A stretch of DNA of 40,499 bases. It comes from an uncultured Candidatus Bathyarchaeia archaeon (lineage in GTDB: Archaea > Thermoproteota > Bathyarchaeia > Bathyarchaeales > Bathycorpusculaceae). The translations under genes and the position numbers were made by a program. The stretch lies in contig CAZADP010000001.1 of the NCBI GenBank assembly GCA_964483905.1, positions 1 through 40,499 of the forward strand, read 5' to 3'. Below, one piece after another: positions 362 to 36,950 of the stretch (within the stretch, counting starts at the first letter, position 1; every line of letters starts with the position of its first letter). Under the pieces are notes generated by a model. It had not been told where the DNA came from. It was given only the letters and a program-made list of their open reading frames with translations, and ran no database searches.

Positions 362-390
362 TAGAAGATAATTCCAGAATTCTTAATAGT
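362..390 (+). promoter_or_regulatory. Copy 1 of the shared 29-nt promoter cassette (near-palindromic core AATTCCAGAATT followed by TATA-like CTTAATAG)
   Basis: The sequence is TAGAAGATAATTCCAGAATTCTTAATAGT. It aligns position by position with the copies at 6219, 10868, 16771, 24115, 27510, 30053 and 36922. All copies are on the + strand, 31-65 nt upstream of a + strand start codon. Confidence 0.7.
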
Positions 391-441
391 TACGGTAATC
401 TATTAATGAATCGTATCCGCGCGCAAGAGGAGAAAGGGAAA

Positions 442-3400
442 TTGTTCAAATCTGAAAAGCTTTTCAGATTACTCCGCGTTTGCGCATTGATATTTCTGTT
501 GTCCTCCATGATGTTTGCATGGCAATCAATACCAGTGAGTTATCAAACGGATTCTGGGCAGCCCGTTTATCTCCATTCGGCAGAGCCCCTAGTGCCAGTG
601 CACATGCGCTCGAACGCTTCTCTGGAGCCTGTACATATGGACTCTAACATAACCCTTACGCCAGTACACATGCACTCACTTCAACCCTATCAGGAGCATT
701 TATATGCGCCCGTATGGACTGATTGGCACGAACTATACCCGAACTATTGCATGGATTGGCATCTCACCAGCTGGGAAGACACTGGTGAACCCTATGGCGA
801 ACTCAGTTCCAATGACCAAATTGACATGACTGATGAGTACGGAAATATGACATGGTTCCACGTAGACAGGATGACAATCACGCTCAACCTTTCATCCGTT
901 GATTCCCCCGAAGAGAAAATTTTCGTCGAGTTTAAGGGCCCGCCTGAGCGTTCTATAGATGTTCTTTACAACCCGAATTGCACCTACTGGCACGAAGTTT
1001 GGTCGATCTATAGCAACGTTTACCATATTATCAATTGGACTGATAATGGTGACGGCATCCTTAGTTTTTGCGATTACATTGACTTAAACCTGACTCAAGG
1101 CGCGATCCCTCCAGGGATTTACAGGTGGCACGTTGATGGAGTATCTAACGAACTCATCTTAAGGTGGAAGATGATGAACCCAATCTGTACTTGGTGGCAT
1201 GAGATCTACCCAAACTACTGCGGATGGCATCATCTTGCCAGTTGGGAAGACTCTGGTCAGCCTAAAGGGCAACTTAGTCCATGTGACCAAATCGACATGA
1301 TTAACGAAGAGACCGGAGAGAAGACCTGGTATCACGTGGACAGAATGACTGTCACCCTAAATGTGACGATAGGTCCTGAGCCAGCCGAGTGGATGAAGAT
1401 AGAATTGAAGACACAATACTTCGAGGAGATATATGAGGTCCTCAAGCATCCGAATGCGACTCTGTGGCACGAGGTTTATCCCAACTACTGCAATACTTAC
1501 GAGCTGACGCGGTGGGACTGGTGGTATGACGACAACTGCAACGGAGTTCTAGACGTCTGCGACCACATTTGGTTGCTGAATTGGTCAGAGCCTGAACCTG
1601 AAGAAAAGAGATATCACATTGAAGACATATCTTACGGCATCATCCTTGACCAAAAAATTGCAAATCCAGAGTCCACCGTCTGGCATGGGCTTTTGCCAGA
1701 GGAGGTCTACAGCAAGTGTTATAATATAAATTATTGGGAAGACACTGGCGAACCCTTCGGATTTCTAAGTCCTTGCGATCAGATTAGGATGCTGACTCCA
1801 GACCCGGCAGAACCATATTTGTGGTACCATGTGGACAGGGTGACCCTCGCCCTCAATGTGTCAAACGTGGATCATCCGGAGGAATTTATGTTCGTCGAAC
1901 TCAAGGAACCCTTTGAAGAACTTTATTTGGTCAAGACGCACCCAAATGAGACTCTTTGGCATGAGGTTTGGCCAAATTACAGCAAAGTCTATCACATTTC
2001 TGACTGGAAAGACAACTGCAACGGCGTTCTCGGCTACTGTGATCTAATTGAATTCACAGACCAAGGAGGATTTACCAGTTGGTGGCACGTTGAAGACTTA
2101 GCCATTGATATTGTCCTCAGCAAGAAGATTGCGAACCCGGTGTGTACCTATTGGCATGAGCTTTATCCAGAATTCTGCAACACATATCACGTCATTAGCT
2201 GGGAAGACAACGGCGACAGTTTTCTAAGCCCTTGTGACTGGGTTGACCTAGAACCCATAAACCCGTCAGGGCCAACAAGGTCATACCATGTGCAAAATGT
2301 AACACTCACTATGCTAGTGTCAAACGCTAGTGATCAGGCGATCACAATGTACATCGAGTTTGAGGGCAGTTTCCAAGAGATATATGAAATCAAGACAGCC
2401 CCCTCGGGTAGCCTATGGCACGAAGTCTATCCAGTATTCTGCAGGTATTACAATCTCACCAGCTGGGAAGACAATTGCGACGGTGTACTCAGTTACTGCG
2501 ACATAATTGATTTAACGGACTTGAATACTACGAAGCTGAGCCGGTGGCACATTGAAGAAGTAGCCATAGACATAGTTGTTAAGAAAAAAGTCCATGATGT
2601 AGCTGTCGATAATGTTTCATCCTTGTATCCTTGGGTATATCTAGGCAAAGTTGACCCTATCTTTGTAAATGTTACAAACGAAGGTGACTATACAGAGAAT
2701 GTTGTTGTCTACGTCTTCTATGGCACCTGTCCATGTAGCCTCGTTGCACCAAATCAGACAGTTGTTCTGATTCCCGGAGACACTAAGACGTTGACGTTCT
2801 ATTGGGACACAACGGGTTTCTCACTAGAAACCTACACCATAAGCGCGAACGCTGCAATTCTAATTGACGAAGACCCAGGAGACAACACACATGTAGGTTT
2901 CACCCTAGAAGTTAGGCCAATGCCGCCGCTCCATTGGAAAGAGTCCCGTCCAGATTATGCCCCAAGTGGAGTGCCCGACTTTGACCAACGGCAAGATCAG
3001 TGGGATAGCCCCCCCGGAAGTGGCGTGTGGACTTGGTGTGCTCCAACCGCCGTCGCCAACTCGTTGTGGTGGTACGACTCCAAATACGAACCGAACATCA
3101 TCTGGCCTCCGCCGAGAATAGTTGACAATAATCCGCTAGTCTCCTCATACAACCCAGGAGTATGGGATGACCACGATCCGCAGAATGTTATGCCGTTCGT
3201 GCAGCACCTAGCCTATCTTATGGACACAGACGGGCAGAGGACGGGAGTCAATCATGTTGGCACTTGGGTATCGGACATGCAAGCTGGAATCGCCCAGTAC
3301 CTTTCATGGACAGGAGTCAACCCGCTTGGAGACGTGAACGGCGACGGAAGAGTTAACCAGACAGACGTAGACGTAGTAAATGCGGCTTTGGGAAGCACGC

Positions 3401-4881
3401 CCGGAAACTCCACTTGGAATATGGCTGCTGACGTCTGGCCGGTTACCACAGGATGGCCAGTTTGGGGACCATCTGACAACGTGATCGAGGCGCAAGACCT
3501 TGCCCTCGTTACAGCAAATATGGGTCGAAGGGGCATGTTCTGTGAGTATACCGTCCAAGCACCAGACTTCTTCGACATAGAGGAAGAAGTTGAAAGGTCT
3601 GAAGACGTCGTCCTCATGCTTGGCTTCTGGAACTACGATCCAGGCACTCAGAGTTGGGTTAGAGAGGAATATCCATATGCATATGGATCAGGGCACTGCG
3701 TAACAGCAGCCGGAGTAAACTCGACCACTATGCAGATTGCCGTAAGCGACCCTGTTCAAGACAATGCTGAACCACCACCTCAGGGCACCAACGGACCGGG
3801 AAGAGTCATTCCAACCCCGCCGCATCCTCATCCACCAGCTCCACCAGAAACCGTGCATAATGACGCTTCTTATGTTTCCCAAGACACATATGCCGTCGCA
3901 CCAGTACCATGCCCCAGCGGCAACTGGACGCTAGTAAACTATTCCAGTCCACAGTATCCTGGGTGGAACATAACTGTAATAGAATGGTCAATCACGATAA
4001 CACCACTTCCATTTCACGATGTATCAATTATCAATGTTTCATCCTTGTTTCCTTGGGTGTATCAAGGGCAGATTGACCCAATCAACGTGACCGTTACAAA
4101 TGAAGGCGGCTTAACAGAAACCATTGACATCTACGCCTTCTTTGACGGAAACTTGGCTGCACCAAAACAGGTAGTCATCCTGGATCCGAGAGACACTAGG
4201 ACGTTGACGTTCAATTGGAACACGACAGGTGTACCAGTAGGAAACTACACGGTGGGCGCTAATGCCACAATCCCTATTGACGATGATCCAGCAGACAATG
4301 TGAAGACGGGAAATCAGCAAGAGATCCGGGAGCCACCATCGGAAATTCACAACGTATCCGTCACCAATGTCGCTACATCTAAAACTGTGATTGGGCAAGG
4401 GTATGCGATGAACATAAACGTAACTGTGGAAAACCCTGGCAACTATACTGAAACCTTTAACATTACAGCCTACTACAACGCAACTTCTGTTAACACAACA
4501 GAAGTCACTCTAACAAGCGGAAACAGCACCACGGTCTCGTTCACATGGAACACTACCGGCGTCGCAAAAGGCAATTACACCATAAGCGCCTACGCCCATC
4601 CAGTTCCAAGCGAAGTGGATATAGCGGACAACAACTTTACTTATGGCTCGGTTGTCGTTGCTATGGTAAGCGACATAACTGGTCCGGAGGGCTTTCCAGA
4701 CGGTAAGGTTGAGATGAGAGACGTTTCAATGGTGGCTAGACTGTTCGGCGTCAGCTATCCAGACCCAAAATACAACCCAAACTGCGACATAACCGGACCA
4801 ACACAGGGTGTAGCCGACGGAAAAATCGAAATGAGAGACGTAAGCCTAGTAGCCCGCAACTTCGGAAAAGTCGACCCATAA
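442..4881 (+). CDS. Secreted multidomain protein: signal peptide, 8 Trp/His/Cys-rich repeats, CARDB, C39/papain-like domain with an embedded dockerin, 2 CARDB, C-terminal double dockerin
   Basis: The track ORF is 307..4881, but the shared promoter cassette (362-390) lies inside it. I place the start at TTG 442, preceded by GAGGAGAAAGGG (428-439) as in the paralogous leaders; ATG 406 is the alternative. The signal peptide is FKSEKLFRLLRVCALIFLLSSMMFA. CARDB signatures are HDVAV, TENV..Y, TFYWDTTG and GDN. The C39-like motifs are WCAPTAVANSLWW (Cys codon 3037-3039) and GHCVTAAGV...IAVSDP (His codon 3694-3696). The C-terminus is DITGPEGFPDGKVEMRDV...FG / CDITGPTQGVADGKIEMRDV...FG. Confidence 0.85.
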   Translation: MFKSEKLFRLLRVCALIFLLSSMMFAWQSIPVSYQTDSGQPVYLHSAEPLVPVHMRSNASLEPVHMDSNITLTPVHMHSLQPYQEHLYAPVWTDWHELYPNYCMDWHLTSWEDTGEPYGELSSNDQIDMTDEYGNMTWFHVDRMTITLNLSSVDSPEEKIFVEFKGPPERSIDVLYNPNCTYWHEVWSIYSNVYHIINWTDNGDGILSFCDYIDLNLTQGAIPPGIYRWHVDGVSNELILRWKMMNPICTWWHEIYPNYCGWHHLASWEDSGQPKGQLSPCDQIDMINEETGEKTWYHVDRMTVTLNVTIGPEPAEWMKIELKTQYFEEIYEVLKHPNATLWHEVYPNYCNTYELTRWDWWYDDNCNGVLDVCDHIWLLNWSEPEPEEKRYHIEDISYGIILDQKIANPESTVWHGLLPEEVYSKCYNINYWEDTGEPFGFLSPCDQIRMLTPDPAEPYLWYHVDRVTLALNVSNVDHPEEFMFVELKEPFEELYLVKTHPNETLWHEVWPNYSKVYHISDWKDNCNGVLGYCDLIEFTDQGGFTSWWHVEDLAIDIVLSKKIANPVCTYWHELYPEFCNTYHVISWEDNGDSFLSPCDWVDLEPINPSGPTRSYHVQNVTLTMLVSNASDQAITMYIEFEGSFQEIYEIKTAPSGSLWHEVYPVFCRYYNLTSWEDNCDGVLSYCDIIDLTDLNTTKLSRWHIEEVAIDIVVKKKVHDVAVDNVSSLYPWVYLGKVDPIFVNVTNEGDYTENVVVYVFYGTCPCSLVAPNQTVVLIPGDTKTLTFYWDTTGFSLETYTISANAAILIDEDPGDNTHVGFTLEVRPMPPLHWKESRPDYAPSGVPDFDQRQDQWDSPPGSGVWTWCAPTAVANSLWWYDSKYEPNIIWPPPRIVDNNPLVSSYNPGVWDDHDPQNVMPFVQHLAYLMDTDGQRTGVNHVGTWVSDMQAGIAQYLSWTGVNPLGDVNGDGRVNQTDVDVVNAALGSTPGNSTWNMAADVWPVTTGWPVWGPSDNVIEAQDLALVTANMGRRGMFCEYTVQAPDFFDIEEEVERSEDVVLMLGFWNYDPGTQSWVREEYPYAYGSGHCVTAAGVNSTTMQIAVSDPVQDNAEPPPQGTNGPGRVIPTPPHPHPPAPPETVHNDASYVSQDTYAVAPVPCPSGNWTLVNYSSPQYPGWNITVIEWSITITPLPFHDVSIINVSSLFPWVYQGQIDPINVTVTNEGGLTETIDIYAFFDGNLAAPKQVVILDPRDTRTLTFNWNTTGVPVGNYTVGANATIPIDDDPADNVKTGNQQEIREPPSEIHNVSVTNVATSKTVIGQGYAMNINVTVENPGNYTETFNITAYYNATSVNTTEVTLTSGNSTTVSFTWNTTGVAKGNYTISAYAHPVPSEVDIADNNFTYGSVVVAMVSDITGPEGFPDGKVEMRDVSMVARLFGVSYPDPKYNPNCDITGPTQGVADGKIEMRDVSLVARNFGKVDP
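709..2586 (+). repeat. In-frame tandem array of 8 units, arranged as 4 long/short pairs of ~88 and ~68 aa, of an unassigned WHE-YPNYC-WED-CD-WYHVD repeat
   Basis: The recurring pattern is P-x-C-T-x-W-H-E-[LV]-[YW]-P-x-[YF]-C ... [ST]-W-[EK]-D-x-G ... [SY]-[PFY]-C-D-x-I-[DE] ... W-[YFW]-H-[VI]-[DE]. Units begin at aa 135, 222, 291, 382, 453, 546, 611 and 699 in track ORF numbering. Confidence 0.8.
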
Positions 4882-6218: not shown

Positions 6219-6247
6219 TAGAAGATTTTTCCAGAAGCTTTTAATGC
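6219..6247 (+). promoter_or_regulatory. Copy 2 of the shared promoter cassette
   Basis: The sequence is TAGAAGATTTTTCCAGAAGCTTTTAATGC. It sits 65 nt upstream of ATG 6313, with the purine-rich leader AAAGGGGAAAGAAGAAGAG in between. Confidence 0.6.
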
Positions 6248-6312: not shown

Positions 6313-9291
6313 ATGAGAATAGGTAAGTTTTCGTCAATAATGTGTTTACTTTTACTTGCAATCTCAACTCTAAACGTCCTCGTCAGATTGTCGGTGTCTG
6401 CATTGCCCTCATGGCCTACACCATGGATCCAAATCGACACTGACCCAAACGAGAACGGCCCTACCGACGATTGGCGAGACGTTCAATACGCTTACTTTCA
6501 ATTTGACAGCAACTACCTCTATCTGAAGCTCGAGTGTTATGACCTGCCTGGCAGCAAATGGGGAACAGGTCCTGGGGAGAAAAAAGCCCGATACAAATGG
6601 TTCATCGACCTCAACGGCGACATGTACTATCACGGTGGAAACTGCTACGATGCTGAATATCTTCTGTTCGTTGAGGATTACGACCACAATGGAGTCGGCG
6701 AAATGTACCTGCTATATGACACAGACCATGACGGCGATTTTAGCGAATATGAACCATGGGACAGCTTCGCCAACTACGCAAACTACAAGGTCACCGACCC
6801 TAATATCGGAGGCTGCAGAATAGTTGCTCCGTATCAGATAGAGATGTACATAGGCTGGGCTTCCATTGGAGATCCATCATCCTACTGGTTAATGTGGGCT
6901 ACAGACCAACAGAATCCTAACCTGGATCAAGCACCCACAACAGACCGTCCCGATGAAGAGGTTCGAATAGCCATTCATGACGTGGCTGCAATAAGCCAGA
7001 CCCCCGATCCAACAACCGTGACTCAAGGCGGCCACGTCACAATAGCCGTGGTGGTGGAGAATCAGGGCACACAGCAAGAAAACTTCGAGGTGACATGCTA
7101 TTTTGAAAACCTCGTGGACGGAATGGTCGGAACCTTGCCAGTTACCAACCTAGACGCTGGCCACTCGATAACACTATACTTCGTCTGGGACACGACGGGA
7201 ATACCCCCTAACACGTACACTATCAAGGCCTGGGCTGATTCTGGTTCGGATATAACCGAGACAGATGAAATGGACAACTGGTGCACCTCTCCAGCAAAGG
7301 TCATAATCGAAGCAGTGAAAGTTCACGACGTGGCTGCAACACAGCAAGATCCACACCCAACAAGCGTGGAGCAAGGCGACCCAGTCGACATAGACGTGAC
7401 AGTCGAGAACCTCGGCGATTTTACTGAGACATTTAATGTTACCTGCTGCTACGATGGTAACGAAATTGGCACGCAAAGAGTGACGCTTTCACCTGGAGTC
7501 TTAACGACGCTAACCTTCACTTGGGACACAACAGGAGTCCCTCCAAACCACATATACGACATAAAGGCGAAAGCTGACTCCAGCAACGAGATCACTGAAA
7601 GCAACGAAGGTAACAACGAATGCACCGCTGCGGCAAGGGTGACTGTTTACAAGCCAGGCTATCCTGGAGAATTGTCTGTGGACAAGGCAACGCCGCCAGC
7701 CTGGATCAGTGGTCCAGATCCGCCAGTGGTCGGCTTCACGACTGTTTATGAATTGACCATAACAGTCACGAATACAGGTGGCAGTGACGTTACTGGTGTC
7801 TGGGTCAATGACACAATTTCGTCAAGTGTTACCTTCGTAAGCTTAGGAACTCCAAGTCAAGGCACCGCACAATATGTTGCGCCCAAAATAAAATGGAACG
7901 TTGGCACTCTAAGCCCCGGAGTCAGTGCAACTTTGACCTTCCAAGTCAGCGTCACTCCTCTAGATCGAGGCATTGTGACCCTCAATTACGCTGTGGATCT
8001 CACTGCCTCTGGCACAGACACGTACACTGGCGACCCAGTTTCTGATACAGGCGACACAGACGTGGAAGTTACAGCCATAGTTCGCGACGTAGAAGCCATC
8101 AGCCAGATTCCCTCAGACACATCCGTAATTCAAGGCGACACAGTTACCATATACGTCACGGTCAGAAACAACGGTGACCAGGTCGAATCTTTCGACGTGA
8201 CTTGCTGCTACGACGGCACGCTCATTGGCACGATCCGAGTCTACAACCTCGGCCCAGCCGCGTCCACAATATTGCCCTTCGCGTGGGACACGACAGGGGT
8301 CACTCCGAAAGTATACGACATAAAGGCGAAAGCTGACTCCAGCGACGAGATTGCTGAGAGTAATGAAGGCAATAACATATGCACAAACCTCGCATCAGTA
8401 AAAATCGTGATACACGATGTGGGAGCGATAAGCCAGACTCCGACACCCGTAAGCGTCAAGAAGGGTGGAACAGTAACCATAGAAGTCGTAGTCGATAATC
8501 ATGGCAGCGAACCCGAAACTTTCGATGTTACTTGCTATTACGACAGCCAAATCGGAGTGCCGCAATCAGTAAGCCTTTTGGCCGGGCATTCCGCAACGCT
8601 GACGTTCTATTGGGACACGACGGGGATGGCGGATGGAGACTACTACATAAAAGCCGTGGCATCGACAGTCGCAGGTGAAAAACACACCGCCGACAACACC
8701 TGCACAAGCGAAGCGATCGTGCACATTTACACTCCAGCGCCAGGAGCATTGTGCGTGGACAAGGCAAAAACAGCCGTGATCAGCGGTCCAGATCCGCCTG
8801 AGGTCGGCAAAACGACTGTTTACGAGCTGACTATTACAGTCAAGAATACAGGAGGTAGCGACGTTACCGATATCTGGGTCCAAGACACAATTTCGTCAAG
8901 TGTCACCTACGTAAGCGTTGAGACTCCAAGCCATGGCACCGTAGCATATGTTGCGCCTAACATAGTATGGAACGTTGGCACTCTAGGCCCCGGAGTCAGC
9001 GCAACCCTCACCTTTAGAGTAAGCCTAACACCCACCACAGCCGGCCTAAAATACCTAAACCACAAAGAGGACCTATCAGCTTCCGGCCTAACCGATAGTA
9101 CAGCCGTTTCAGACAGTGGAGACACTGATGTGACTGTGGCAGCTATATCAGTGTGCCCAGCCGTAGGCGGAGAGTGGGTCCCAATAAATAAGTTACAGCT
9201 TCTGTCTCCTTTGGTAGGCTCGGCAACTTTGATGGCAGTAATCACAACATGCTTTGTCTACGTCAAACGCAAAAAGAAACAACAAAACTAA
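6313..9291 (+). CDS. Cell-surface protein: signal peptide, unassigned Asp/Trp-rich N-domain, [CARDB-CARDB-DUF11-like] x2, C-terminal WVPINK-type sorting signal with TM anchor
   Basis: The signal peptide is MRIGKFSSIMCLLLLAISTLNVLV. There are four CARDB units (HDVAA.SQ.P.P, FxVTCYY, TFxWDTTG, NNxC). There are two DUF11-like units (VYELTITV.NTGGSDVT..WV.DTISSSVT.V, W.VGTL.PGVSATLTF.VS.TP). The C-terminus is GGEWVPINKLQLLSPLVGSATLMAVITTCFVYVKRKKKQQN. Confidence 0.85.
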   Translation: MRIGKFSSIMCLLLLAISTLNVLVRLSVSALPSWPTPWIQIDTDPNENGPTDDWRDVQYAYFQFDSNYLYLKLECYDLPGSKWGTGPGEKKARYKWFIDLNGDMYYHGGNCYDAEYLLFVEDYDHNGVGEMYLLYDTDHDGDFSEYEPWDSFANYANYKVTDPNIGGCRIVAPYQIEMYIGWASIGDPSSYWLMWATDQQNPNLDQAPTTDRPDEEVRIAIHDVAAISQTPDPTTVTQGGHVTIAVVVENQGTQQENFEVTCYFENLVDGMVGTLPVTNLDAGHSITLYFVWDTTGIPPNTYTIKAWADSGSDITETDEMDNWCTSPAKVIIEAVKVHDVAATQQDPHPTSVEQGDPVDIDVTVENLGDFTETFNVTCCYDGNEIGTQRVTLSPGVLTTLTFTWDTTGVPPNHIYDIKAKADSSNEITESNEGNNECTAAARVTVYKPGYPGELSVDKATPPAWISGPDPPVVGFTTVYELTITVTNTGGSDVTGVWVNDTISSSVTFVSLGTPSQGTAQYVAPKIKWNVGTLSPGVSATLTFQVSVTPLDRGIVTLNYAVDLTASGTDTYTGDPVSDTGDTDVEVTAIVRDVEAISQIPSDTSVIQGDTVTIYVTVRNNGDQVESFDVTCCYDGTLIGTIRVYNLGPAASTILPFAWDTTGVTPKVYDIKAKADSSDEIAESNEGNNICTNLASVKIVIHDVGAISQTPTPVSVKKGGTVTIEVVVDNHGSEPETFDVTCYYDSQIGVPQSVSLLAGHSATLTFYWDTTGMADGDYYIKAVASTVAGEKHTADNTCTSEAIVHIYTPAPGALCVDKAKTAVISGPDPPEVGKTTVYELTITVKNTGGSDVTDIWVQDTISSSVTYVSVETPSHGTVAYVAPNIVWNVGTLGPGVSATLTFRVSLTPTTAGLKYLNHKEDLSASGLTDSTAVSDSGDTDVTVAAISVCPAVGGEWVPINKLQLLSPLVGSATLMAVITTCFVYVKRKKKQQN
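9154..9288 (+). other. C-terminal tripartite sorting-type signal: motif WVPINKLQLLSP, hydrophobic helix, KRKKKQQN tail
   Basis: The last 45 codons of the 6313..9291 gene carry this signal. A second copy of the same architecture (DVWVPINKFQLLAPW + helix + HRKKQ) is at 19963-20088. Confidence 0.65.
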
Positions 9292-26019: not shown

Positions 26020-26054
26020 ACGAAATATTCAAATGTCGCAAAAATAGTAGAATT

Positions 26055-27509: not shown

Positions 27510-27538
27510 TAGAAGATAATTCCGGAATCTTTAAGTTC
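27510..27538 (+). promoter_or_regulatory. Copy 6 of the shared promoter cassette; core is the perfect palindrome ATTCCGGAAT
   Basis: The sequence is TAGAAGATAATTCCGGAATCTTTAAGTTC. It sits 46 nt upstream of ATG 27585, with the leader AAAGGAGAAGGGAGAAAAGATA in between. Confidence 0.7.
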
Positions 27539-30052: not shown

Positions 30053-30081
30053 TAGAAGACATTTACAGACGACTTAAATAT
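30053..30081 (+). promoter_or_regulatory. Copy 7 of the shared promoter cassette
   Basis: The sequence is TAGAAGACATTTACAGACGACTTAAATAT. Its TATA-like end overlaps the track start codon ATG 30080, which argues against that start. Confidence 0.6.
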
Positions 30082-30121: not shown

Positions 30122-33100
30122 TTGCACAGCAGAAGATTAGCCTTTATTGTAATTTTGCTTGTTTTGTTCAGCATGATAGTGCTATGGTCACCGTTCGCAC
30201 GCGCTAGTATAGTTACTCCGATGTTTTTCATGCTGATTCCGTTATCATTTCTGTTTATTTCTAAGTTCAAGAAGATAGGAAAGAAGCTACGCTTAAAAAG
30301 CAAGTTTTCAATGCTTCTTTTGTTAACGATTGTTTTACTCGTCACAGTTTCAATCGCAAGGCTTTTCTCTGGAACAATGTTTCAAATAAGACCAGTACAT
30401 GCATGGTGGGACAACAATTGGGACTACTGCCGAAAAATCACAATCGATAGTAGTAAAGTGGATGAAGCGTTAACAAATTTTCCAGTGTTGGTTTATTTAA
30501 ACTCTTCAAGGATAAACTGGACCAACGTTCAAGACGATTTAGACGATTTGAGGTTCATAGCAGACGACAACTCAACTGTATTGAAATATGAAATAGAAAA
30601 TTATACTGTGAACAACGATGCATGGTTATGGGTTAAGATTCCGTCTGCTTCTAACACTTCTGACACTAGTTTCTTGATGTATTACGGCAACAACGCTTGT
30701 AGCAGTGGAGAAGACGCAGAGAATGTGTGGGATTCAAACTACGTAATGGTTCAACACATGAATGATAATACTACATCATCGATTTTAGATAGCACATCAA
30801 ATAACAATGATGGCACAAAGAAAGGAGCAGGAGAACCAACAGCAACAACAAGTGGAAAGATAGATGATGCTCAATATTTTGATGGGACAGATGATTATAT
30901 CGCTCTGGGTTCACCTGCCTCCCTACAAATTACTAATGGTACGCTTATGGCTTGGGTTAAAACAACTAACGCAGGGGGTTCATATAGAGATATCTTGGAT
31001 TATCCGCAAAGTTACGGCTTATGGACTAATGAAAATATATTTGGAGTTTACGATTGGGCGGGTGGTGGATGGAAAAGCAGTGGTGTTTCTATCAATGACG
31101 GTAATTGGCATCAAGTTGTATTTGTGAAACAGTATAATATCGCCAGTGGTTCGTTTTTCTATGTAGATGGGGTTCAAGTAGGTAGTGCTATTACCTATGC
31201 CTCAAATAGTTATACTAGTAATTTGAAGATAGGTGTAGAATCAAGTGGGCTTGGTGAAGCATTCAATGGAACAATTGACGAAGTCCGTATTTCAAACGCA
31301 TCAAGAAGCGGTGCTTGGATTAAAGCCTCATACTATTCAGGAAAAGATGAATTGTTAACGTTTGGGTCAGAAGAACTTGGTAACACCGCTCCAACAAACG
31401 ACCAGTTAACACTTGACTTGACTGGTGCAAGCTACAAAGGAACGAAGACACTTTTAGCAGGGAAGCAGGATTACAAGTTTGTGCATTTATGCACGGATGC
31501 TAATGGTGTCACAGACATAACCTATGCCGAGATTCGGCTGGACTGTAATGGTAAAAACGTGATTTTAAGAGCCACTAGAGGTTCTGGCGATACATGGACG
31601 TTCAGCGAGCAAAGCGACCCGTCCAACTACGTCACCCTCAACACAGGCGGTTCTTCGCACTCAACAAACGGAAACCAGAAGACCTTCAACTATCTTGTCA
31701 CTATAAACTGGGCTTGGGGAGACTCTGCCGAAACCGTAGCGGTTCAAGCCTACGTGATTGATTCGCAAAGCGCGAGTGATACTGACAATTATGCAAGCGT
31801 CTTCGGTGTTGAGGCTCACCTCACTTCCTTTTCATTGGCAGTTAATGATTATCGTTGTAACCCCTCGCAGACTTTGACCATGAGCGGTTACTGGTACTAC
31901 GATGGAACTTCAATAGCACCGCCAGACGGCAACTACAATGTTGTAGTCAAACTTTCAGGTGTGCAGAAAGGAAGCACAGACACGACTTTGGTTTCTGGGG
32001 CTTTCAGCATTAGCGATGTCACCGCAGAATCTTCCATTTCAAGCTACTCTTACACGGTTGAAGCGACATACATGAGTGGAGCAGGCTCATTTTCAGCTGT
32101 CATAGTGGATAGGATTAAGGTTTCATCCTATACAGTTTCAGACAGTAGAGCCAACATTAACGATAGTGTAAATATTGATGCTACCCTAGTCTATGAATAT
32201 AGTAGCACGGCAGTAACTACTGGAACTATCACGATTAACACTTATTCAGCGTCACATCAAGGTTCTGGCGTTTATAGAATTACTCGCACCAGCTCAAGCG
32301 TTACAAGTGTTACATACAACACAGTAGCAGGTTCAGAGTCAACACACGATTTAAACACGGTTAATCAAAATAGTCAATCTACAACAGTGATATGGGATAA
32401 TATAGTGGTTTCAGGCAAAGGAGTTACAGTTGGTAGAACAAATATTAATAGCTATCAGCAATATTGGTTTACACTAAGAAGTCAATATGACTCAGCAGTA
32501 GTTTCTTCTGGAACTGTAACACTTAACGGTTCACTCTCCGCTAGTTGGATTTCAGCCCGTAGTCGATGGGAATACAATACAACCAAATCTTCAGCTCAAG
32601 CTCAAGCCTTATATGCCGCATCAGTCAATTGGGACACTTACGGGATTACAAGTCTGTCCAGCCAAACCAGCAATAGCACAAGTATTGTTTGGGACAACAT
32701 TGTTGTTTCTGGTAAAGGCGTGACATCAACTCGGTTGAACATTAATTCTTATGCTCAGTATTGGTTTACTCTCCGTTCTCAATATGATGGAACTCCAGTG
32801 CAGGTTGGAACAGTTTCTTTAAACGGTTCTGTTTCAGCATCATACATTTCAGCTAGAACTCGTTGGGAATATAACGTTACGAAATCTACGGTTCAGAAGA
32901 TGTCGCTTTACGTGGCTTCGGTAAGCTGGTCTATGTATGATATAACAAGTCTTTCAAGTCAAACAGCTAACTATACTACAATAATATGGGACAGAATAAG
33001 AATAGATACATTAGGAGTTGTATCTGGAAGAATTAACGTAAACACTCAGGGAACGTACTACGCAACAGCAAGTTTAGAGTATGATAGTCATGCGTTAGGT

Positions 33101-36100
33101 TCTGGAGATAGTCTAACATTAAGTAGTCACATCTTTACTTGGAACGTTGGGAATAGCAGATTCGAGAATAATACGACAATGGCAACTGTAACTTCAGTTA
33201 CAATAAACAGTTTTACAAGTGGCAACGAAGCTACGTATGGTATTACTGCAGGAAATGTAAACGCTAAAACAACCTCGATAATATGGGATAGATTAACTGT
33301 CAACTATAAGGCAGTAGATAATAGCAGAAGAAACATAAACACTGCAGGAGCAATTAGATTTAAACTTAGGTCAGAGTATGATAGCGCTTTTGTGACTAGC
33401 GGTAGTGTAAGCATAAATGGAACAGGTGCAACATGGGACGCTGGAAATAGTTGGTGGTACATAAGTTACACGCTTAATGCAATAAATATCAGATATTTTG
33501 CCGTTAGTGCAGCGAACTGGAATACTTATGGTATAACTGCATTAAATTCTGGAGTTGCGACTAATACTACGTCCATAATTTGGGATAGGATACGAATAGA
33601 CACACTAAGCAAAACAGACACAGATGGAAGAGTAAACGTCAATAGCCAAGGAACATTTTACGCTACTGCAAGTCTAGAATATGATGGTCACGCTTTAGGT
33701 TCTGGCGATAGTTTAACTTTAAGTGACTGTGTTTTTACTTGGGTTAGTGCAAGAAGTCGTTTTGAATACAATGTCACAAAATCATCGGTTCAAGCCTTAA
33801 TAGTCAACACATTCACTTCTGGAAATGAGGCAACCTATGGCATAATAGTGGGCAACATTAACTCTCAAACAGGAACAATAATTTGGGATAGAGTTGTGGT
33901 AACAATTTCAGCCGATTCGACAGGTCCAGACGCAGGGCAAACTGTAAACTTCACGGTTACAGCGGTTTACGATTATGATGACGCTTCAGTTACATCTTGG
34001 ACGGTTAACATTTATCGTAACGGCACACATTTTGCAACTGGAAACTTTACAGACAAAAGTGATTCCGAAGTTAAATATCTATACACTACAGAAAACGTCA
34101 CAGACAACATATATGACTTAACAGCTTTTACAAGTAACACCGTAACAGTCGTTTGGGGTAACCTATTCATTGAAGTAAACGAAATAAATATTCAAGATAG
34201 TAGAATAAACATTGGGACTCAAGCTACAGTTTATTACCATTGCAGATTCAGTAGTAATCAAAGCAGTTGCACGACTGGAACATTATATGTTAATGGTACA
34301 AGCTTTACTATCAACAGCACAGGCTGGGCAACAGTCACCTTCACTTTCAGCGAGGTAGATAAGAAAGCATTAGTTGTTACCGCTATAGATGTAAACGGAG
34401 AAACAGATTTTCAACAAGGTCCATCAAATCCAGAGATAATTTGGGATAGAGTAAATGTGACAATAAGTGCTGATGGAACGTACGTTATCCTAAAAACAAA
34501 GGTTAATTTCACTATTACTGCAATTTATGAATTTGATTCGAATTCTGTAACGAGCTGGATAGTAAACATTTGTCGAAATTCAACGTATTTTGCAACAGGA
34601 AACTTTACTGATACACAAACATCACCTTCAGTCTATGAATATACGATTGAAAACATAACTGAAGGTACCTACGGATTAACAGTTTTTCAGTCAAACATGG
34701 TAACGGTCGAATGGTATAATAGTCCTCCGGTTGCTTCCTTCAATTATTCTCCTGAATTTCCGATCGCTGGTAACACTGTTACTTTCAACGCCTCAAAGAG
34801 CTACGACGCTGATGGCACGATCAATGTTTATAAGTGGAATTTCAGCGATGGGACTCCAATTGAATCTTCTCCTGCACCAACAATAATGCATGTATTCGGA
34901 ACGAGAGGAAACTACACAGTAACGTTAGCATTAGTCGACGATAAAGGCGCTGAAAACAAAACCGAGGCAACAATAACTATAATAGCTAATCCAACCGCTG
35001 ACTTCACCTATTCGCCAACATACCCAATCACTGGTGAAACTGTCACTTTTAATGCTTCAGCTTCAGCACCAAACGGCGGAACAATCATTAGCTATTTCTG
35101 GAACTTCAGCGACGGAACAACCGCTAACGTGTCGTCTGCTATAACAACGCACGCTTACCTGTCCTTTGGAAATTACACGGTAGCATTGACCGTAAAGGAT
35201 AGCGAAGGATTAACGAATTCCCGCTCTAAAATTATAACAGTAATAGATTATCCGTCTGCCAACTTTACCTATTCGCCAGCATATCCGATTGCTCGAGAAA
35301 CTGTCACTTTTAATGCTTCAGCCTCAAAACCTAACGGCGGCACAATTATCAGCTATTTCTGGGATTTTGGTGATGCAACAAACTCGACCGGACTTGTCAC
35401 AGGTCACATATATCACGCCTTTGGAACTTACGTGGTAACTCTTAAAGTCGTTGATAGCGAACAACTAGCCAACAGCACGTCTCAATTAATAAATGTAAGG
35501 CAGCATCCAACCGCCAACTTCACGTACTCTCCTCTGCTTCCAGTAGTGGGCCAAACTGTTACCTTTAACGCCTCATTATCAGAGCCCAATGGCGGCACAA
35601 TAATAACCTACACTTGGAATTTCGGCGATGCTCAAACAGGAACGGGCATGATAATTAACCACACCTATTCAACCTACAGAACTTATAACGTAACACTAAC
35701 AGTCACTGACAGCGAAGGACTTTCTAACACTTTTGCACAAATTGTCAGAATAATAATCCAACCTACCGCCGACTTCATGTATGCTCCAACCTACCCGGTC
35801 TTTAACCAATCCGTTCTCTTTGATGCTTCAATTTCTTACGATCCCGACGGGATAATCATGACCTACACTTGGAGTTTCGGGGACGGAAACGTAACAACAG
35901 TTAGCGGTTCCTCAATACGGCACGCGTTCGAAAACGCAACCACATATGATGTCACCTTAACAGTGACAGACAATGACGGCTTAACCAACACAATAACAAA
36001 ACGCATAACCGTATACACCACAGTTGTTTTAGTACATGATGTTGCAATAACTAGCATTGAGCCTAAGTCTTCATGGGTGTACCAAGGAAAAACACTTAAC

Positions 36101-36532
36101 ATCACGGTTACAGTTACCAATGAAGGAACCGATCTTGAAACATTTAACGTGAGTCTCTACTACGATAACACAAAAATAAGAACGCATACCGTTATCAACC
36201 TGTTTCCAGGCAAGAACTTAACGCTAACATTCGCTTGGAACACAACAAACCTTTATCCAGCTCAGTATAACATCTCCGCTGTAGCAACCATACTACCAGA
36301 AGAAACTGACACCGCTGACAACACACTAGTTTACGGAACAATAAGCGTATTATGGATGGGAGACATAAACCATGACGGCAAAGTTGACATGCGGGACATA
36401 GCGAGAATAGCAAGAGGCTTCGGCTCCCATAGCGGCGAACCACGCTACGATCCAAACTGCGATCTAAACAATGACGGCAAAATCGACATGCGCGACATCG
36501 CGCCCGCCGCGAAGAACTTCGGAAAGCCCTAA
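30122..36532 (+). CDS. Giant (~2136 aa) surface protein: N-terminal hydrophobic segments, DUF2341, LamG/concanavalin-like domain, ~12 Ig-like repeats, 5 PKD, CARDB, dockerin
   Basis: I place the start at TTG 30122 after GAGGGAGAAAGG (30104-30115). This gives MHSRRLAFIVILLVLFSMIVLWSPFARA; the track start ATG 30080 lies inside the promoter cassette. The DUF2341 part is WWDNNWDYCRKITID...FPVLVYLN...LRF...WV.IP....T.F.MYYGN. The LamG part is DGT..G......GKIDDAQYFDGTDDYI......LMAWVK......DGNWHQVVFV...G....YVDG.....IDEVRISN..RS..WI. The dockerin is GDINHDGKVDMRDIARIARGFG...CDLNNDGKIDMRDIAPAAKNFG. Confidence 0.85.
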   Translation: MHSRRLAFIVILLVLFSMIVLWSPFARASIVTPMFFMLIPLSFLFISKFKKIGKKLRLKSKFSMLLLLTIVLLVTVSIARLFSGTMFQIRPVHAWWDNNWDYCRKITIDSSKVDEALTNFPVLVYLNSSRINWTNVQDDLDDLRFIADDNSTVLKYEIENYTVNNDAWLWVKIPSASNTSDTSFLMYYGNNACSSGEDAENVWDSNYVMVQHMNDNTTSSILDSTSNNNDGTKKGAGEPTATTSGKIDDAQYFDGTDDYIALGSPASLQITNGTLMAWVKTTNAGGSYRDILDYPQSYGLWTNENIFGVYDWAGGGWKSSGVSINDGNWHQVVFVKQYNIASGSFFYVDGVQVGSAITYASNSYTSNLKIGVESSGLGEAFNGTIDEVRISNASRSGAWIKASYYSGKDELLTFGSEELGNTAPTNDQLTLDLTGASYKGTKTLLAGKQDYKFVHLCTDANGVTDITYAEIRLDCNGKNVILRATRGSGDTWTFSEQSDPSNYVTLNTGGSSHSTNGNQKTFNYLVTINWAWGDSAETVAVQAYVIDSQSASDTDNYASVFGVEAHLTSFSLAVNDYRCNPSQTLTMSGYWYYDGTSIAPPDGNYNVVVKLSGVQKGSTDTTLVSGAFSISDVTAESSISSYSYTVEATYMSGAGSFSAVIVDRIKVSSYTVSDSRANINDSVNIDATLVYEYSSTAVTTGTITINTYSASHQGSGVYRITRTSSSVTSVTYNTVAGSESTHDLNTVNQNSQSTTVIWDNIVVSGKGVTVGRTNINSYQQYWFTLRSQYDSAVVSSGTVTLNGSLSASWISARSRWEYNTTKSSAQAQALYAASVNWDTYGITSLSSQTSNSTSIVWDNIVVSGKGVTSTRLNINSYAQYWFTLRSQYDGTPVQVGTVSLNGSVSASYISARTRWEYNVTKSTVQKMSLYVASVSWSMYDITSLSSQTANYTTIIWDRIRIDTLGVVSGRINVNTQGTYYATASLEYDSHALGSGDSLTLSSHIFTWNVGNSRFENNTTMATVTSVTINSFTSGNEATYGITAGNVNAKTTSIIWDRLTVNYKAVDNSRRNINTAGAIRFKLRSEYDSAFVTSGSVSINGTGATWDAGNSWWYISYTLNAINIRYFAVSAANWNTYGITALNSGVATNTTSIIWDRIRIDTLSKTDTDGRVNVNSQGTFYATASLEYDGHALGSGDSLTLSDCVFTWVSARSRFEYNVTKSSVQALIVNTFTSGNEATYGIIVGNINSQTGTIIWDRVVVTISADSTGPDAGQTVNFTVTAVYDYDDASVTSWTVNIYRNGTHFATGNFTDKSDSEVKYLYTTENVTDNIYDLTAFTSNTVTVVWGNLFIEVNEINIQDSRINIGTQATVYYHCRFSSNQSSCTTGTLYVNGTSFTINSTGWATVTFTFSEVDKKALVVTAIDVNGETDFQQGPSNPEIIWDRVNVTISADGTYVILKTKVNFTITAIYEFDSNSVTSWIVNICRNSTYFATGNFTDTQTSPSVYEYTIENITEGTYGLTVFQSNMVTVEWYNSPPVASFNYSPEFPIAGNTVTFNASKSYDADGTINVYKWNFSDGTPIESSPAPTIMHVFGTRGNYTVTLALVDDKGAENKTEATITIIANPTADFTYSPTYPITGETVTFNASASAPNGGTIISYFWNFSDGTTANVSSAITTHAYLSFGNYTVALTVKDSEGLTNSRSKIITVIDYPSANFTYSPAYPIARETVTFNASASKPNGGTIISYFWDFGDATNSTGLVTGHIYHAFGTYVVTLKVVDSEQLANSTSQLINVRQHPTANFTYSPLLPVVGQTVTFNASLSEPNGGTIITYTWNFGDAQTGTGMIINHTYSTYRTYNVTLTVTDSEGLSNTFAQIVRIIIQPTADFMYAPTYPVFNQSVLFDASISYDPDGIIMTYTWSFGDGNVTTVSGSSIRHAFENATTYDVTLTVTDNDGLTNTITKRITVYTTVVLVHDVAITSIEPKSSWVYQGKTLNITVTVTNEGTDLETFNVSLYYDNTKIRTHTVINLFPGKNLTLTFAWNTTNLYPAQYNISAVATILPEETDTADNTLVYGTISVLWMGDINHDGKVDMRDIARIARGFGSHSGEPRYDPNCDLNNDGKIDMRDIAPAAKNFGKP
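32387..34720 (+). repeat. In-frame array of eight ~90-100-aa modules, each opening I-[IV]-W-[DG]-[RN]-[ILV]
   Basis: Unit starts are at about 32387, 32684, 32981, 33278, 33576, 33878, 34148 and 34436, with the array closing at 34706. The first five are spaced 297-298 nt apart. The sub-families alternate (WDNIVVSGKGV..R.NINSY.QYWFTLRSQYD versus WDRIRIDTL....GR.NVN.QGT.YATASLEYD.HALGSGDSLTLS). Confidence 0.8.
34720..36015 (+). repeat. Five tandem PKD domains (~258-nt period)
   Basis: The five units open PPVASFNYSP, NPTADFTYSP, YPSANFTYSP, HPTANFTYSP and QPTADFMYAP. Each carries TVTFNAS.S.PNGG.I..Y.W.F.D and ...Y.VTL.V.D..G. Confidence 0.85.
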
Positions 36533-36538
36533 TATCCA

Positions 36539-36543
36539 TTTTT
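36539..36543 (+). terminator. Short oligo-T (T5) terminator candidate after the giant gene
   Basis: CCATTTTTATG lies 7 nt after the TAA at 36530-36532. Confidence 0.35.
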
Positions 36544-36921
36544 ATGTTAATGAAACGAAAAATTAGTTTGTTGACCTTGGACGTATGATAAGAATGAGGA
36601 TGAAAAATTCAACAGTGTGCAATTTATATTGTAATCACATCTTTCTCTATTCAAATTTAAACTTTTTATCTTCCTCTGTAGTTTTGAAACAAGTTATTAC
36701 TTGTCTCCTCCTCAGTCTCATCAGAGCAGCATCTAAACTTTAGAACCAAACTCGTAAATCACTGTCTAAACTTTACTATCATATGCTTAAACAATCGTTA
36801 GGAACATTAAGAAATGTTAGGTAGCATAATAATTAGAGCGCGCTAAATCTTGAATCATTTTTGAGAAACATGATTGAACACTTTGTAACAGGCTTTTTTT
36901 AAGATGCTGTCGTCATGGCCA

Positions 36922-36950
36922 TAGAATATTTTTTCACAAATAATAAGTAT
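36922..36950 (+). promoter_or_regulatory. Copy 8 (degenerate) of the shared promoter cassette
   Basis: The sequence is TAGAATATTTTTTCACAAATAATAAGTAT. It keeps TAGAA.AT..TT.CA.AA and TAAGTAT in register, and sits 32 nt upstream of ATG 36983. Confidence 0.4.

Follow-up and report, generated by a model that had tools for sequence, protein, structure and literature searches.

The window analysed here, a 40,499-nt stretch of DNA from an uncultured Candidatus Bathyarchaeia archaeon, carries a series of genes for exported proteins, and a 29-nt sequence, hereafter the cassette, recurs upstream of those whose products are CARDB, dockerin, cohesin and PKD proteins (Table 1). The relatives of the cassette and of the window proteins lie in Bathyarchaeia genomes. 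No rRNA or tRNA gene was found in the window, no Rfam family reached its gathering score there, and an ORF-poor 1.3-kb stretch (4882-6218) showed no similarity to any fetched locus.

An earlier note on this DNA had claimed eight copies of the cassette, of which seven stand, exactly at the coordinates given there. Searching the window for TAGAAGAY-N3-TNCNGA (TAGAAGAYNNNTNCNGA, at most one mismatch allowed) gave seven matches, all on the plus strand, against 0.42 expected from 100 shuffles, none of which contained seven matches. A 29-nt weight matrix run over both strands of the window recovered the same seven sites at 24.5-42.0 bits and scored everything else below 8 bits. The eighth proposed copy, at 36922, scored -2.3 bits, keeps only TAGAA.AT and has neither TTCC nor the purine SD leader; because of this score and the missing shared leader, we do not count it as a member. 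It lies 32 nt upstream of the ATG of an S8 subtilase gene, in a region that looks like a different, short-leader promoter.

All seven true copies lie on the plus strand before genes whose SD-linked starts open on a signal peptide (SP), as the coding-strand placement claimed earlier would have it. The distance from cassette end to SD-linked start, previously given as 31-65 nt, is 51, 65, 31, 61, 37, 46 and 40 nt for copies 1 to 7. At three genes the mechanical ORF starts (307, 27558 and 30080) are upstream of the SD-linked ones, two of the three inside or before the cassette. The window copies resemble one another only within the cassette and the purine-rich SD; neither flanks nor coding starts align. 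The matrix scan bore out the absence of the cassette from the minus-strand genes and the ArsR-like gene, and found none in the 69-nt gap between the two genes of the 10928..15640 unit. That a strand-specific element marks a set of surface-protein genes is true in the window and far beyond it. The orthologue of gene 2 in another Bathyarchaeia locus (L066), 56% identical, has the cassette too, and the position of copy 5 is occupied by weak variants in two further loci (L160 and L163).

Table 1. Features of the window, in nucleotides from its first letter; the gene or unit after each true copy is given from its SD-linked start.
Feature	Position	Strand	Remarks
Cassette copy 1, TAGAAGATAATTCCAGAATTCTTAATAGT	362..390	+	35.9 bits; pattern match
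Parts of copy 1			box A, bases 1-8; box B and BRE-like TTCCAGAA, 11-18; TATA-like CTTAAT, 21-27
Copy 1 spacer and leader	391..441	+	AGGAGAAAGGGAAA directly before TTG 442
Gene 1, SP protein with CARDB and dockerin	442..4881	+	likely start TTG 442, not mechanical TTG 307
Cassette copy 2	6219..6247	+	31.2 bits
Gene 2, SP protein with 4 CARDB and 2 DUF11 domains	6313..9291	+	
Cassette copy 3	10868..10896	+	28.7 bits; divergent from minus-strand CARDB/CcdA-like gene 9362-10693
Probable two-gene unit behind copy 3	10928..15640	+	rhodanese-NosD-CARDB protein 10928-13300, then CARDB protein 13370-15640
Cassette copy 4	16771..16799	+	37.0 bits
Dockerin protein with signal peptide	16861..18273	+	
ArsR/PadR/Phr-like winged-helix protein	20521..21060	+	class-wide; candidate factor only
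MinD/ParA-like ATPase 21088-21912 and NosD-like beta-helix protein 21964-24012	21088..24012	-	no cassette on either
Cassette copy 5	24115..24143	+	42.0 bits; divergent from NosD-like/MinD-like operon
Probable two-gene unit behind copy 5	24181..27407	+	CARDB-PKD-dockerin protein 24181-26019, then CARDB-dockerin protein 26055-27407
Cassette copy 6	27510..27538	+	40.9 bits; perfect ATTCCGGAAT palindrome, then canonical leader AGGAGAAGGGAGAAAAGATA-ATG
Protein with four cohesin domains and dockerin	27585..29846	+	likely start ATG 27585
Cassette copy 7, most divergent true copy (TAGAAGAC...TTTACAGAC)	30053..30081	+	24.5 bits
DUF2341-PKDx5-CARDB-dockerin protein	30122..36532	+	likely start TTG 30122
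Non-member 'copy 8'	36922..36950	+	-2.3 bits; before S8 subtilase-CARDB gene (Pfam) starting 36983

Layout of the cassette

The cassette runs from box A (TAGAAGAT) through box B (TTCC) to RGAA and then YTTAAAT. TTAAAT occupies cassette positions 22-27; it does not vary among strong copies and always lies on the coding strand, and the TATA-like box and RGAA of these copies look near consensus. Weak copies depart from consensus in core and upstream boxes alike, and the positions they retain are those of box A, TTCC, AA and the TATA box. Two to three variable bases come after RGAA, which occupies positions 15-18; RGAA resembles VRAAA, in an uncertain register, and doubles as one half of a palindrome. 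YTTAAAT is followed by an A/T-rich stretch where a promoter-proximal element would be expected, and farther on by a conserved stretch resembling TGCTGAAA where an initiator would be. The copies agree in the lengths of spacer and leader, and the purine-rich leader, AGGAGAAGGGAGAA, is found on SP genes only. Four gene-length contigs (L142, L148, L117 and L127) have their first base beyond the cassette, 9-17 nt short of the ATG.

Since the host is archaeal (Bathyarchaeia, by homologues), the earlier note's reading of YTTAAAT as an archaeal TATA box is reasonable, and the geometry of the downstream stretches fits it. The central palindrome described there, said to sit where a BRE would be, fared less uniformly. 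It is perfect only where position 15 is G, as in 68% of strong copies and 8% of weak ones; where A stands there instead (32% of strong copies, 92% of weak), no matching change in the other half ever makes up for it, and the GAA-N5-TTC element comprises 3+3 bp only. The 3' half of the palindrome, RGAA, would occupy the BRE position, which would leave TAGAAGAT and TTCC, upstream of the BRE, as the genuinely additional elements.

From this arrangement we infer the TATA and BRE assignments and a transcription start. In an archaeal promoter class specific to Bathyarchaeia exported-protein genes, the cassette would be the control region that stays untranscribed, with the start (+1) predicted about 23 nt after it, near the conserved TGCTGAAA. 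Box A would then span about -52 to -45 and box B about -42 to -39; RGAA with its two to three variable bases would serve as BRE, YTTAAAT as TATA box at about -31 to -25, and the A/T-rich stretch would fall at about -14 to -5. A transcribed leader of 20-30 nt with AGGAGAAGGGAGAA would follow, and then the start codon.

Conservation across Bathyarchaeia and restriction to signal-peptide genes

An exact scan of 185,579 species genomes with the strict pattern returned 41 loci from about 37 Bathyarchaeia genomes; matches outside Bathyarchaeia were confined to one Lachnospiraceae coding family and scattered singletons. These 41 loci were ascertained by the motif itself, a bias mitigated with loci found by homology. 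In metagenomic loci found solely by their homology to a two-cohesin protein, the cassette lies just upstream in 37 of 37, and across them identity is 84% in the cassette, 28-33% in the 58 nt upstream, 0.40 over codons 2-10 and 42% in the protein. The cassette is therefore class-wide in Bathyarchaeia, almost letter for letter, and not local. Every strong Bathyarchaeia copy with a callable ORF lies 37-54 nt before an SP start, and 29 of the 40 proteins downstream of Bathyarchaeia copies have cohesin domains. Viral sequences held no copies beyond three coding matches, all one identical sequence and without the leader, and a viral origin was accordingly rejected. A search of the literature for the motif in a relevant context, for Bathyarchaeia promoters or for their cohesin-dockerin genes found no paper.

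Cassette-like sites were present at 42 of 88 SP genes and at 1 of 84 non-SP genes. In a motif-independent set, 28 of 136 other SP genes had such a site against 2 of 141 'non-SP' genes, and both exceptions turned out on inspection to have signal peptides, the gene calls and the signal-peptide test being crude heuristics. Because a recognisable copy occurs on only 20-45% of SP genes, the cassette is not a universal secretome signal. As reference for generic promoters we used non-exported genes and the thermosome gene, the non-SP TATA alignment being small and noisy (14 sites). The thermosome promoter is a plain ACAAAA-TTTATATT with a plain GGAG and no cassette, and other genes have gcAAAgTTATAAAt-type promoters. 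To obtain tRNA promoters as a further reference, tRNA genes were sought with ARAGORN; none came up in the window, nor in the 41 loci found by the motif, nor in 60 of the 80 found by homology. These comparisons establish the motif as such, where and in which orientation it lies, that it is conserved throughout the class and that it is confined to SP genes.

Candidate factor and mode of control

The only candidate factor in view is the ArsR-like winged-helix (wHTH) protein encoded at 20521, a putative binder of the cassette suggested by its gene neighbourhood. This protein has 179 aa, with a wHTH fold and a long C-terminal helical extension. It has 416 homologues, the best 120 of which are 59-82% identical, and its recognition helix is invariant across the class homologues. 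A wHTH/MinD/NosD arrangement among cohesin and dockerin genes occurs in 6 of 6 genomes examined; judged from such sequence comparisons, the ArsR-like protein is not a random neighbour of surface-protein genes. Structural matches were weak (E ~2e-3 to 1e-2, TM ~0.35 over the query), the best being of ArsR/SmtB and PadR/Phr type, and a PDB sequence search gave no match. Within the canonical cassette loci, no wHTH or MinD homologue was found. The canonical cassette gene is flanked mostly by Opp/Dpp transporter genes, and no transcription-factor gene stands consistently beside it, a single AsnC-type regulator appearing among 76 neighbour proteins.

We give a probability of roughly 85% to the cassette being promoter DNA that defines a regulon of exported-protein genes. 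A cassette that is transcribed and acts in the mRNA, in translation control or in targeting of the message to the membrane, would suit its fixed orientation and distance to the start codon, and the accompanying SP-specific purine leader is certainly an RNA-level signal. However, the only self-complementary part shows no compensatory changes, Rfam gave no match, a canonical TATA-like box stands at the right distance from the initiator-like stretch, and the transcript-like gene-length contigs begin downstream of the cassette; we regard such a role as very improbable. Hardly credible at all is an origin of the copies as leftovers of a recent duplication or as a mobile repeat. Several copies do lie within 40 kb before related domain families, but similarity breaks off abruptly on either side of the cassette, with no alignment of the coding starts, the cassette keeps its orthologous position in genomes whose proteins share only 30-45% identity, and viral copies are absent except for the three identical coding matches.

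As to how such promoters are controlled, we give about even odds to a class that depends on an activator-type factor, predicted to bind upstream of the BRE. TBP and TFB would use the TATA box and RGAA, and a conserved sequence-specific factor on boxes A and B, just upstream of the BRE, would help recruit them; the genes for the cohesin-dockerin assembly, for CARDB/PKD proteins and for peptide-binding proteins would thereby be switched together, and closeness to consensus would set the promoter strength of each copy. In archaea the typical activator site adjoins the BRE on its upstream side, and a weak BRE or TATA is frequent among known activator-dependent promoters (PMC5512572). Against an activator, TATA and RGAA are near consensus, and TTCCGGAA overlaps the BRE position, where repressors act. 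Control might instead be negative, which we think unlikely, with TTCCGGAA, possibly together with TAGAAGAT, as the putative operator of a dimeric wHTH repressor such as the ArsR-like protein; the bound repressor would occlude BRE and TATA, and the surface-protein genes would be released only on a signal, for example available peptides or polymers. In keeping with this, the palindrome ATTCCGGAAT, 8-10 bp long, extends into the BRE position, archaeal regulators that bind inside a promoter repress it (PMC5937170), TATA and RGAA in the core seem strong enough to work unaided, and the best structural matches of the wHTH protein include known repressors (for example BigR, MecI and As(III)-responsive ArsR proteins). 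Yet in 32% of strong copies, and in 92% of the weak, the uncompensated A at position 15 breaks the palindrome; TAGAAGAT, the block that varies least, stands well upstream of the BRE and lacks a symmetric counterpart; and neither the matrix scan nor inspection found a cassette upstream of the wHTH gene itself, so that there is no sign of autoregulation. The cassette could also work with no dedicated regulator, as an extended basal promoter giving very high constitutive expression, read by a particular paralogue of TFB or TBP or through additional contacts of TFB, TFE or RNAP, the secreted structural proteins merely being the most abundant products. This too we consider improbable. RGAA-N3-TTAAAT does resemble consensus BRE/TATA (VRAAA in Pyrococcus, PMC5937170), a strong double SD leader accompanies the module, and the closest match to consensus belongs to one conserved two-cohesin protein, probably an abundant one, other genes having weaker versions in graded steps. 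Conservation nevertheless reaches 20 bp upstream of any known TFB contact, and the non-exported genes that were checked, the thermosome gene among them, lack the cassette (1/84 and 2/141 flagged). For the activator-type promoter that we prefer, we infer the existence, positive sign and identity of the controlling factor.

Known systems and meaning for the class

Short conserved elements that abut BRE/TATA and are common to functionally linked genes are a feature shared by the cassette with the sites of TFB-RF1, EarA, GvpE and Ptr2 and with the Sulfolobus ara-box. The site of TFB-RF1 in Pyrococcus furiosus is a 4-N5-4 palindrome that precedes BRE/TATA closely (PMC5937170), with which GAA-N5-TTC of the cassette is comparable; the sites of EarA in Methanococcus maripaludis lie immediately upstream of the BRE (PMC5512572), and for GvpE of haloarchaea two blocks of 8 nt ahead of the BRE are required (PMC2241852). 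In sequence the cassette is unrelated to any of these sites. Unlike them it is nearly invariant across a whole class and targets tens of exported-protein genes, not one operon, and its BRE-like and TATA parts look strong, not weak. Phr and PadR combine a wHTH fold with a C-terminal helical extension, as the 179-aa wHTH protein does, and dimers of ArsR/SmtB, PadR and Phr bind short inverted repeats, which TTCCGGAA may resemble.

The SigI/RsgI system of Clostridium thermocellum places a dedicated promoter type on many cohesin/dockerin genes, so that the extracellular assembly is expressed as a unit; it is bacterial and works through alternative sigma factors and -35/-10 promoters. The likeness is functional only, without sequence or mechanistic homology, the cassette appearing to be of the archaeal TBP/TFB type. 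A bacterial SigI-type, sigma-dependent promoter was rejected for the cassette, as the host is archaeal by homologues.

More tentatively, and in our estimate rather doubtfully, the genes of the extracellular apparatus of Bathyarchaeia may be marked by a two-layer 'export code', in which promoter element and purine leader would together form a class-wide switch. As the first layer, a single conserved factor would read the nearly invariant element upstream in the promoter, the best guess for this factor being the wHTH protein of the wHTH/MinD/NosD arrangement; the second would be the distinct purine-rich leader, which no cytoplasmic gene would use. The apparatus so marked would comprise cohesin-dockerin scaffolds, CARDB/PKD proteins, dockerin-tethered peptide-binding proteins and proteases, and would serve feeding on detrital polymers.

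Bathyarchaeia are among the most abundant uncultured archaea of sediments and peat, and to our knowledge nothing is known experimentally of their gene control. A short DNA signature that flags exported surface and peptide-scavenging proteins makes a regulon predictable from any Bathyarchaeia genome. The promoter and transcription start that follow from it are precise predictions, which public metatranscriptomes could check, and it could serve as a defined bait to capture the controlling factor; cassette and leader together may give future genetic tools a strong promoter and leader of native origin. If the regulon reading is true, the cohesin-dockerin system of the class would be regulated as a unit, as bacterial cellulosomes are, by archaeal means.

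Cassette copies and their genes in the window

Searching the 40,499-nt window with the core pattern TAGAAGAYNNNTNCNGA and allowing at most one mismatch, we found seven copies of the 29-nt cassette, all on the plus strand. Dinucleotide-preserving shuffles contained the pattern 0.42 times on average and reached seven in 0 of 100 cases. A 29-nt weight matrix trained on the window copies and their relatives assigned these seven sites 24.5-42.0 bits; its scan of both strands of the window gave no further site of at least 8 bits. The 8-mer TAGAAGAT (bases 1-8, box A) was uninformative on its own, with 58 one-mismatch matches in the window against 38 expected. The earlier note had counted eight copies, on the coding strand and 31-65 nt before gene starts. 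Seven of these stand, as do their strand and spacing. The ‘degenerate’ eighth, at 36922 and 32 nt 5' of the ATG of an S8 subtilase gene, scored -2.3 bits, lacks both the TTCC box (box B) and the purine-rich leader, and was not counted.

Positions of the cassettes, their genes and other features. Cassettes were found by pattern match and weight matrix; starts are the start codons after the Shine-Dalgarno (SD) stretch; leaders have the SD consensus AGGAGAAGGGAGAA; distance runs from cassette to start.
Feature	Position	Strand	Leader	Start	Distance (nt)	Basis or remark
Cassette 1	362	+	391-441	442	51	
Cassette 2	6219	+		6313	65	
Cassette 3	10868	+		10928	31	
Cassette 4	16771	+	16800-16860	16861	61	
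Cassette 5	24115	+	24144-24180	24181	37	
Cassette 6	27510	+	27539-27584	27585	46	
Cassette 7	30053	+	30082-30121	30122	40	
ArsR-like wHTH protein, 179 aa	20521-21060	+				weak HTH_20 and HTH_5 Pfam matches
wHTH (+), MinD/ParA-like ATPase (-), NosD-like beta-helix (-)	window 20521-24012; L160, L162, L163, L164, L165	+/-/-				6/6 contexts
Secreted two-cohesin protein	L014:2454-4394; L021, L030, L031, L059, L062, L071; 80 metagenome loci					
Solute-binding protein with dockerin	L158:1708-4800					weak cassette 5'

All seven SD-linked genes begin with a typical signal peptide (SP), and their products carry CARDB, dockerin, cohesin, PKD and NosD domains. Longest-ORF starts at 307, 27558 and 30080 lie upstream of the SD-linked starts 442, 27585 and 30122, two of them preceding or falling inside the cassette, and are probably wrong; automatic annotation of these three genes is likely to carry N-terminal extensions that hide the signal peptide. 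When the copies were aligned with 60 nt of 5' and 130 nt of 3' flank, likeness was confined to the cassette and the purine-rich SD stretch, so they are not remnants of gene duplication; an origin as a repeat or mobile element is likewise unlikely.

The cassette is not common to all secreted-protein genes of the cluster. Upstream of the S8 subtilase-CARDB gene the sequence is different (36922-36982): AATAATAAGTATAAG lies about 35 nt 5' of the ATG and there is no SD, suggesting that the transcript of this gene may be short-leader or leaderless. Between gene 1 and cassette 2, 1.3 kb of sequence (4882-6218) holds no convincing ORF, the longest being 103 aa and cysteine-rich, and matched neither an Rfam family nor any fetched Bathyarchaeia locus.

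Conservation across Bathyarchaeia and specificity for exported proteins

An exact scan of 185,579 genomes, one per species, with TAGAAGATWNWTCCRGANNNNTTAA returned 71 loci, of which 41, from about 37 genomes and mostly labelled Bathyarchaeia or Bathyarchaeota, have one striking context in common. The others comprise one conserved Lachnospiraceae coding sequence and scattered single matches. The twelve Lachnospiraceae matches share …CCGGATAATTTAGAAGATTATTCCGGACAATTTAAACTAAGAATTCC…, which looks like part of a conserved gene and is an unrelated sequence coincidence. Short contigs with cassette and leader (L044, L017, L064, L071) are filed under Archaeoglobales (L044), Thermoplasmata, Micrarchaeota and Caldilineae, probably through binning errors; L044 is nearly identical to a Bathyarchaeota contig (L046) over 40 nt upstream and 81 nt downstream of the cassette. 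The cassette could be used as a taxonomic flag.

The order in the Bathyarchaeia loci is constant: cassette, a spacer of mostly 26-33 nt containing an A/T-rich patch and often TGCTGAAA, then AGGAGAAGGGAGAA and, mostly 3-10 nt on, the start codon. Every strong copy with a callable ORF lies 37-54 nt 5' of the start of an SP protein, and 29 of the 40 proteins downstream of strong copies have cohesin domains. The gene at 6313 has an orthologue in another locus (L066), 56% identical and also cassette-bearing. This orthologue and the named Bathyarchaeia homologues of the winged-helix protein encoded in the window place the source organism in Bathyarchaeia.

Because these loci were picked by the motif itself, we repeated the analysis on loci picked by protein homology. 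The protein most often found downstream, about 640 aa long, is one of a family (alignment A3) that combines two cohesin-like domains with a conserved C-terminal region, and its gene bears the best version of the cassette. Searching metagenome contigs for its relatives gave 80 loci, and in all 37 with an N-terminus and upstream DNA the top matrix match in the 250 nt 5' was the cassette, at 19-48 bits. On the opposite strand only three loci had a site of 12 bits, and these are near-identical to one another and have a divergent second copy. In 36 distinct upstream regions of orthologues, pairwise identity averaged 0.84 in the cassette, 0.28-0.33 in the two 29-nt blocks directly 5' of it, 0.40 in codons 2-10 and 0.42 in the proteins, so constraint on the cassette is much stronger than on the gene that follows. 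The C-terminal region of the protein is strongly conserved (IDLYTQYPxPYGGQG...VTYNEYPVQQK...FRIPWPC), and no Pfam family was reported for it. The gene often adjoins an Opp/Dpp-type peptide ABC transporter operon (neighbour matches: 22 ATPase, 9 permease, 8 binding-protein).

Genes were called and N-termini scored by simple heuristics of our own, and the SP and non-SP counts are therefore approximate: a cassette-like site scoring at least 0 precedes 42 of 88 SP-like and 1 of 84 other genes in the motif-ascertained loci (Fisher P 3e-14), and one of at least 12 bits precedes 28 of 136 versus 2 of 141 in the motif-independent loci with the canonical two-cohesin gene left out (P 8e-8). The two site-bearing ‘other’ genes of the latter set plainly encode signal peptides that the scoring overlooked, as do two further genes that appear when the threshold is lowered. 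Over 613 kb of motif-independent loci there were 98 matches of at least 12 bits with 76 distinct proteins downstream; 74 scored as exported and the remaining two are exported by eye. The matrix scan of these loci finds enrichment before exported-protein genes, and the earlier note's reading of the cassettes as promoters of a regulon is supported, far beyond the window.

Weaker variants (TAGAAGCTATTTCCAGAATCTTTATATCA, for example) are found in front of the genes for cohesin-CARDB-dockerin proteins, 325-aa dockerin proteins, a CBM96-PKD protein and family-5 solute-binding proteins. One of the last, an ABC-transporter binding protein (L158), ends in a C-terminal dockerin, which suggests that substrate-binding proteins may be docked onto cohesin scaffolds. 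The cassette does not mark every exported protein, as the majority of SP genes have no recognisable copy. Nor is it a generic, or generic-strong, promoter, since promoters of cytoplasmic genes differ: the thermosome gene (L011) has ACAAAA-TTTATATT and a plain GGAG, and gcAAAgTTATAAAt stands upstream of several others.

The leader shows the same preference. An extended purine SD, G[AG]GA[AG][AG]GG[AG], occurs in 39 of 88 SP-like versus 0 of 84 other genes in the motif-ascertained loci (Fisher P 2e-14) and in 36 of 136 versus 2 of 141 in the motif-independent ones (P 1.5e-10), where at least one of the two exceptions (in L094) is a mis-scored exported protein. Cytoplasmic genes use plain GGAG(G). 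The usual anti-SD pairing would not explain conservation beyond GGAG.

Anatomy of the cassette, a probable promoter

In strong copies T1 A2 G3 A4 A5 G6 A7 T8 are conserved at 94-100%, A9 and A10 at about 85%, T11 T12 C13 C14 at 98-100%, and A17 A18 and T22 T23 A24 A25 A26 T27 at 100%. Position 15 is G (68%) or A (32%), 16 is G (81%) or T (17%), 21 is C or T, and 19-20 and 28-29 vary. Weak copies retain TAGAA, TTCCA, AA and the first Ts of the A/T box. The earlier note had seen a central palindrome where a TFB-recognition element (BRE) would be. Its 3' half, RGAA, 2-3 bases before YTTAAAT, would occupy the BRE position and is purine-rich like the Pyrococcus BRE consensus VRAAA (PMC5937170). The palindrome ATTCCGGAAT is perfect only with G at position 15, and A15 is never compensated, which speaks against an RNA helix and makes a strictly symmetric operator less likely; a transcribed RNA element is unlikely. 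TAGAAGAT and TTCC are the parts that basal-promoter function does not explain, as had been proposed for the 5' block, and together they form a weak GAA-N5-TTC inverted repeat.

Given the usual TATA-to-start distance, we infer that +1 would coincide with the conserved TGCTGAAA, about 23 nt downstream of the cassette, placing the A/T-rich patch at about -14 to -5 and box A at about -52 to -45, with a leader of 20-30 nt. Four contigs of about 1.95-2.07 kb (L142, L148, L117, L127) have near-exact gene length. Their first bases lie within the purine leader, 9-17 nt 5' of the ATG, and two of the contigs end 11-27 nt past the stop codon. As a group they resemble assembled monocistronic transcripts from the canonical cohesin gene and give an indirect hint in favour of this geometry. 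If they are transcripts, the cassette is not transcribed.

Our preferred reading is a factor-dependent promoter whose boxes A and B would be read by a conserved protein. Archaeal activators typically bind immediately 5' of the BRE (PMC5512572), and factors bound over the BRE/TATA box, or downstream, repress (PMC5512572, PMC5937170). The TFB-RF1 site, TCTG-N5-CAGA, lies directly 5' of the BRE (PMC5937170), EarA has 6-bp sites immediately 5' of the fla promoter BRE (PMC5512572), and GvpE requires two 8-nt blocks 5' of the BRE (PMC2241852), an architecture shared by the cassette promoter. It is this positional rule and these parallels that favour a factor-dependent promoter. One main rival is a repressor bound on the TTCCGGAA core; the asymmetry of the cassette and the position of its most invariant block mildly favour activation. 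The other is an extended basal promoter that needs no factor and might be recognised by a TFB or TBP paralogue; a merely ‘strong’ promoter is disfavoured by the restriction to exported-protein genes. Activator, repressor and basal promoter are inseparable by sequence data alone.

A winged-helix candidate and the place of the cassette

The earlier note had named the ArsR-like winged helix-turn-helix (wHTH) protein as candidate binder. Of its 416 homologues, the best 120 share 59-82% identity with it over full length, and all organism-labelled members among these are labelled Bathyarchaeia. Conservation is well above expectation, and the predicted recognition-helix region LPGLLKHMKELE is invariant. 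In its AlphaFold model (pLDDT 80) long helices follow a winged helix, and the top structural matches, all weak, are to ArsR/SmtB proteins, PadR and Phr, a heat-shock regulator of Pyrococcus; a PDB sequence search gave no match. In the window and five other genomes the gene converges with one for a MinD/ParA-like ATPase, 5' of which lies a NosD-like beta-helix gene, and the flanks are always cohesin, dockerin, S8-CARDB or solute-binding-protein genes. The beta-helix protein has about 600-680 aa and a signal peptide; the C-terminal half of the window protein has repeated N-x-S/T and leucine-rich motifs and a hydrophobic end. Weak cassette variants adjoin the arrangement, and in L165 the wHTH gene is divergent from a cassette-bearing solute-binding-protein gene. 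The region upstream of the wHTH gene itself shows no cassette, as had been noted, and in the fetched loci the gene is not near the canonical cassette gene. This context fits a regulator of the surface system and, equally well, a role confined to the MinD/NosD pair. The protein is a plausible candidate; that it is the cassette-binding factor we think rather unlikely.

The literature searched makes no mention of the motif, of Bathyarchaeia promoters or of their cohesin-dockerin genes. A regulon-defining upstream element on a TBP/TFB promoter is a known category. Four features are new: the cassette sequence, its almost unchanged form throughout a whole class of uncultured archaea, its confinement to an exported set of cohesin-dockerin, CARDB and peptide-binding proteins, and the distinct leader that accompanies it, which cytoplasmic genes lack. 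Bacterial cellulosome genes have dedicated promoters, which the cassette promoter parallels in function and to which it is unrelated in mechanism. With the mechanism still inferred, gene regulation in Bathyarchaeia is now directly testable.
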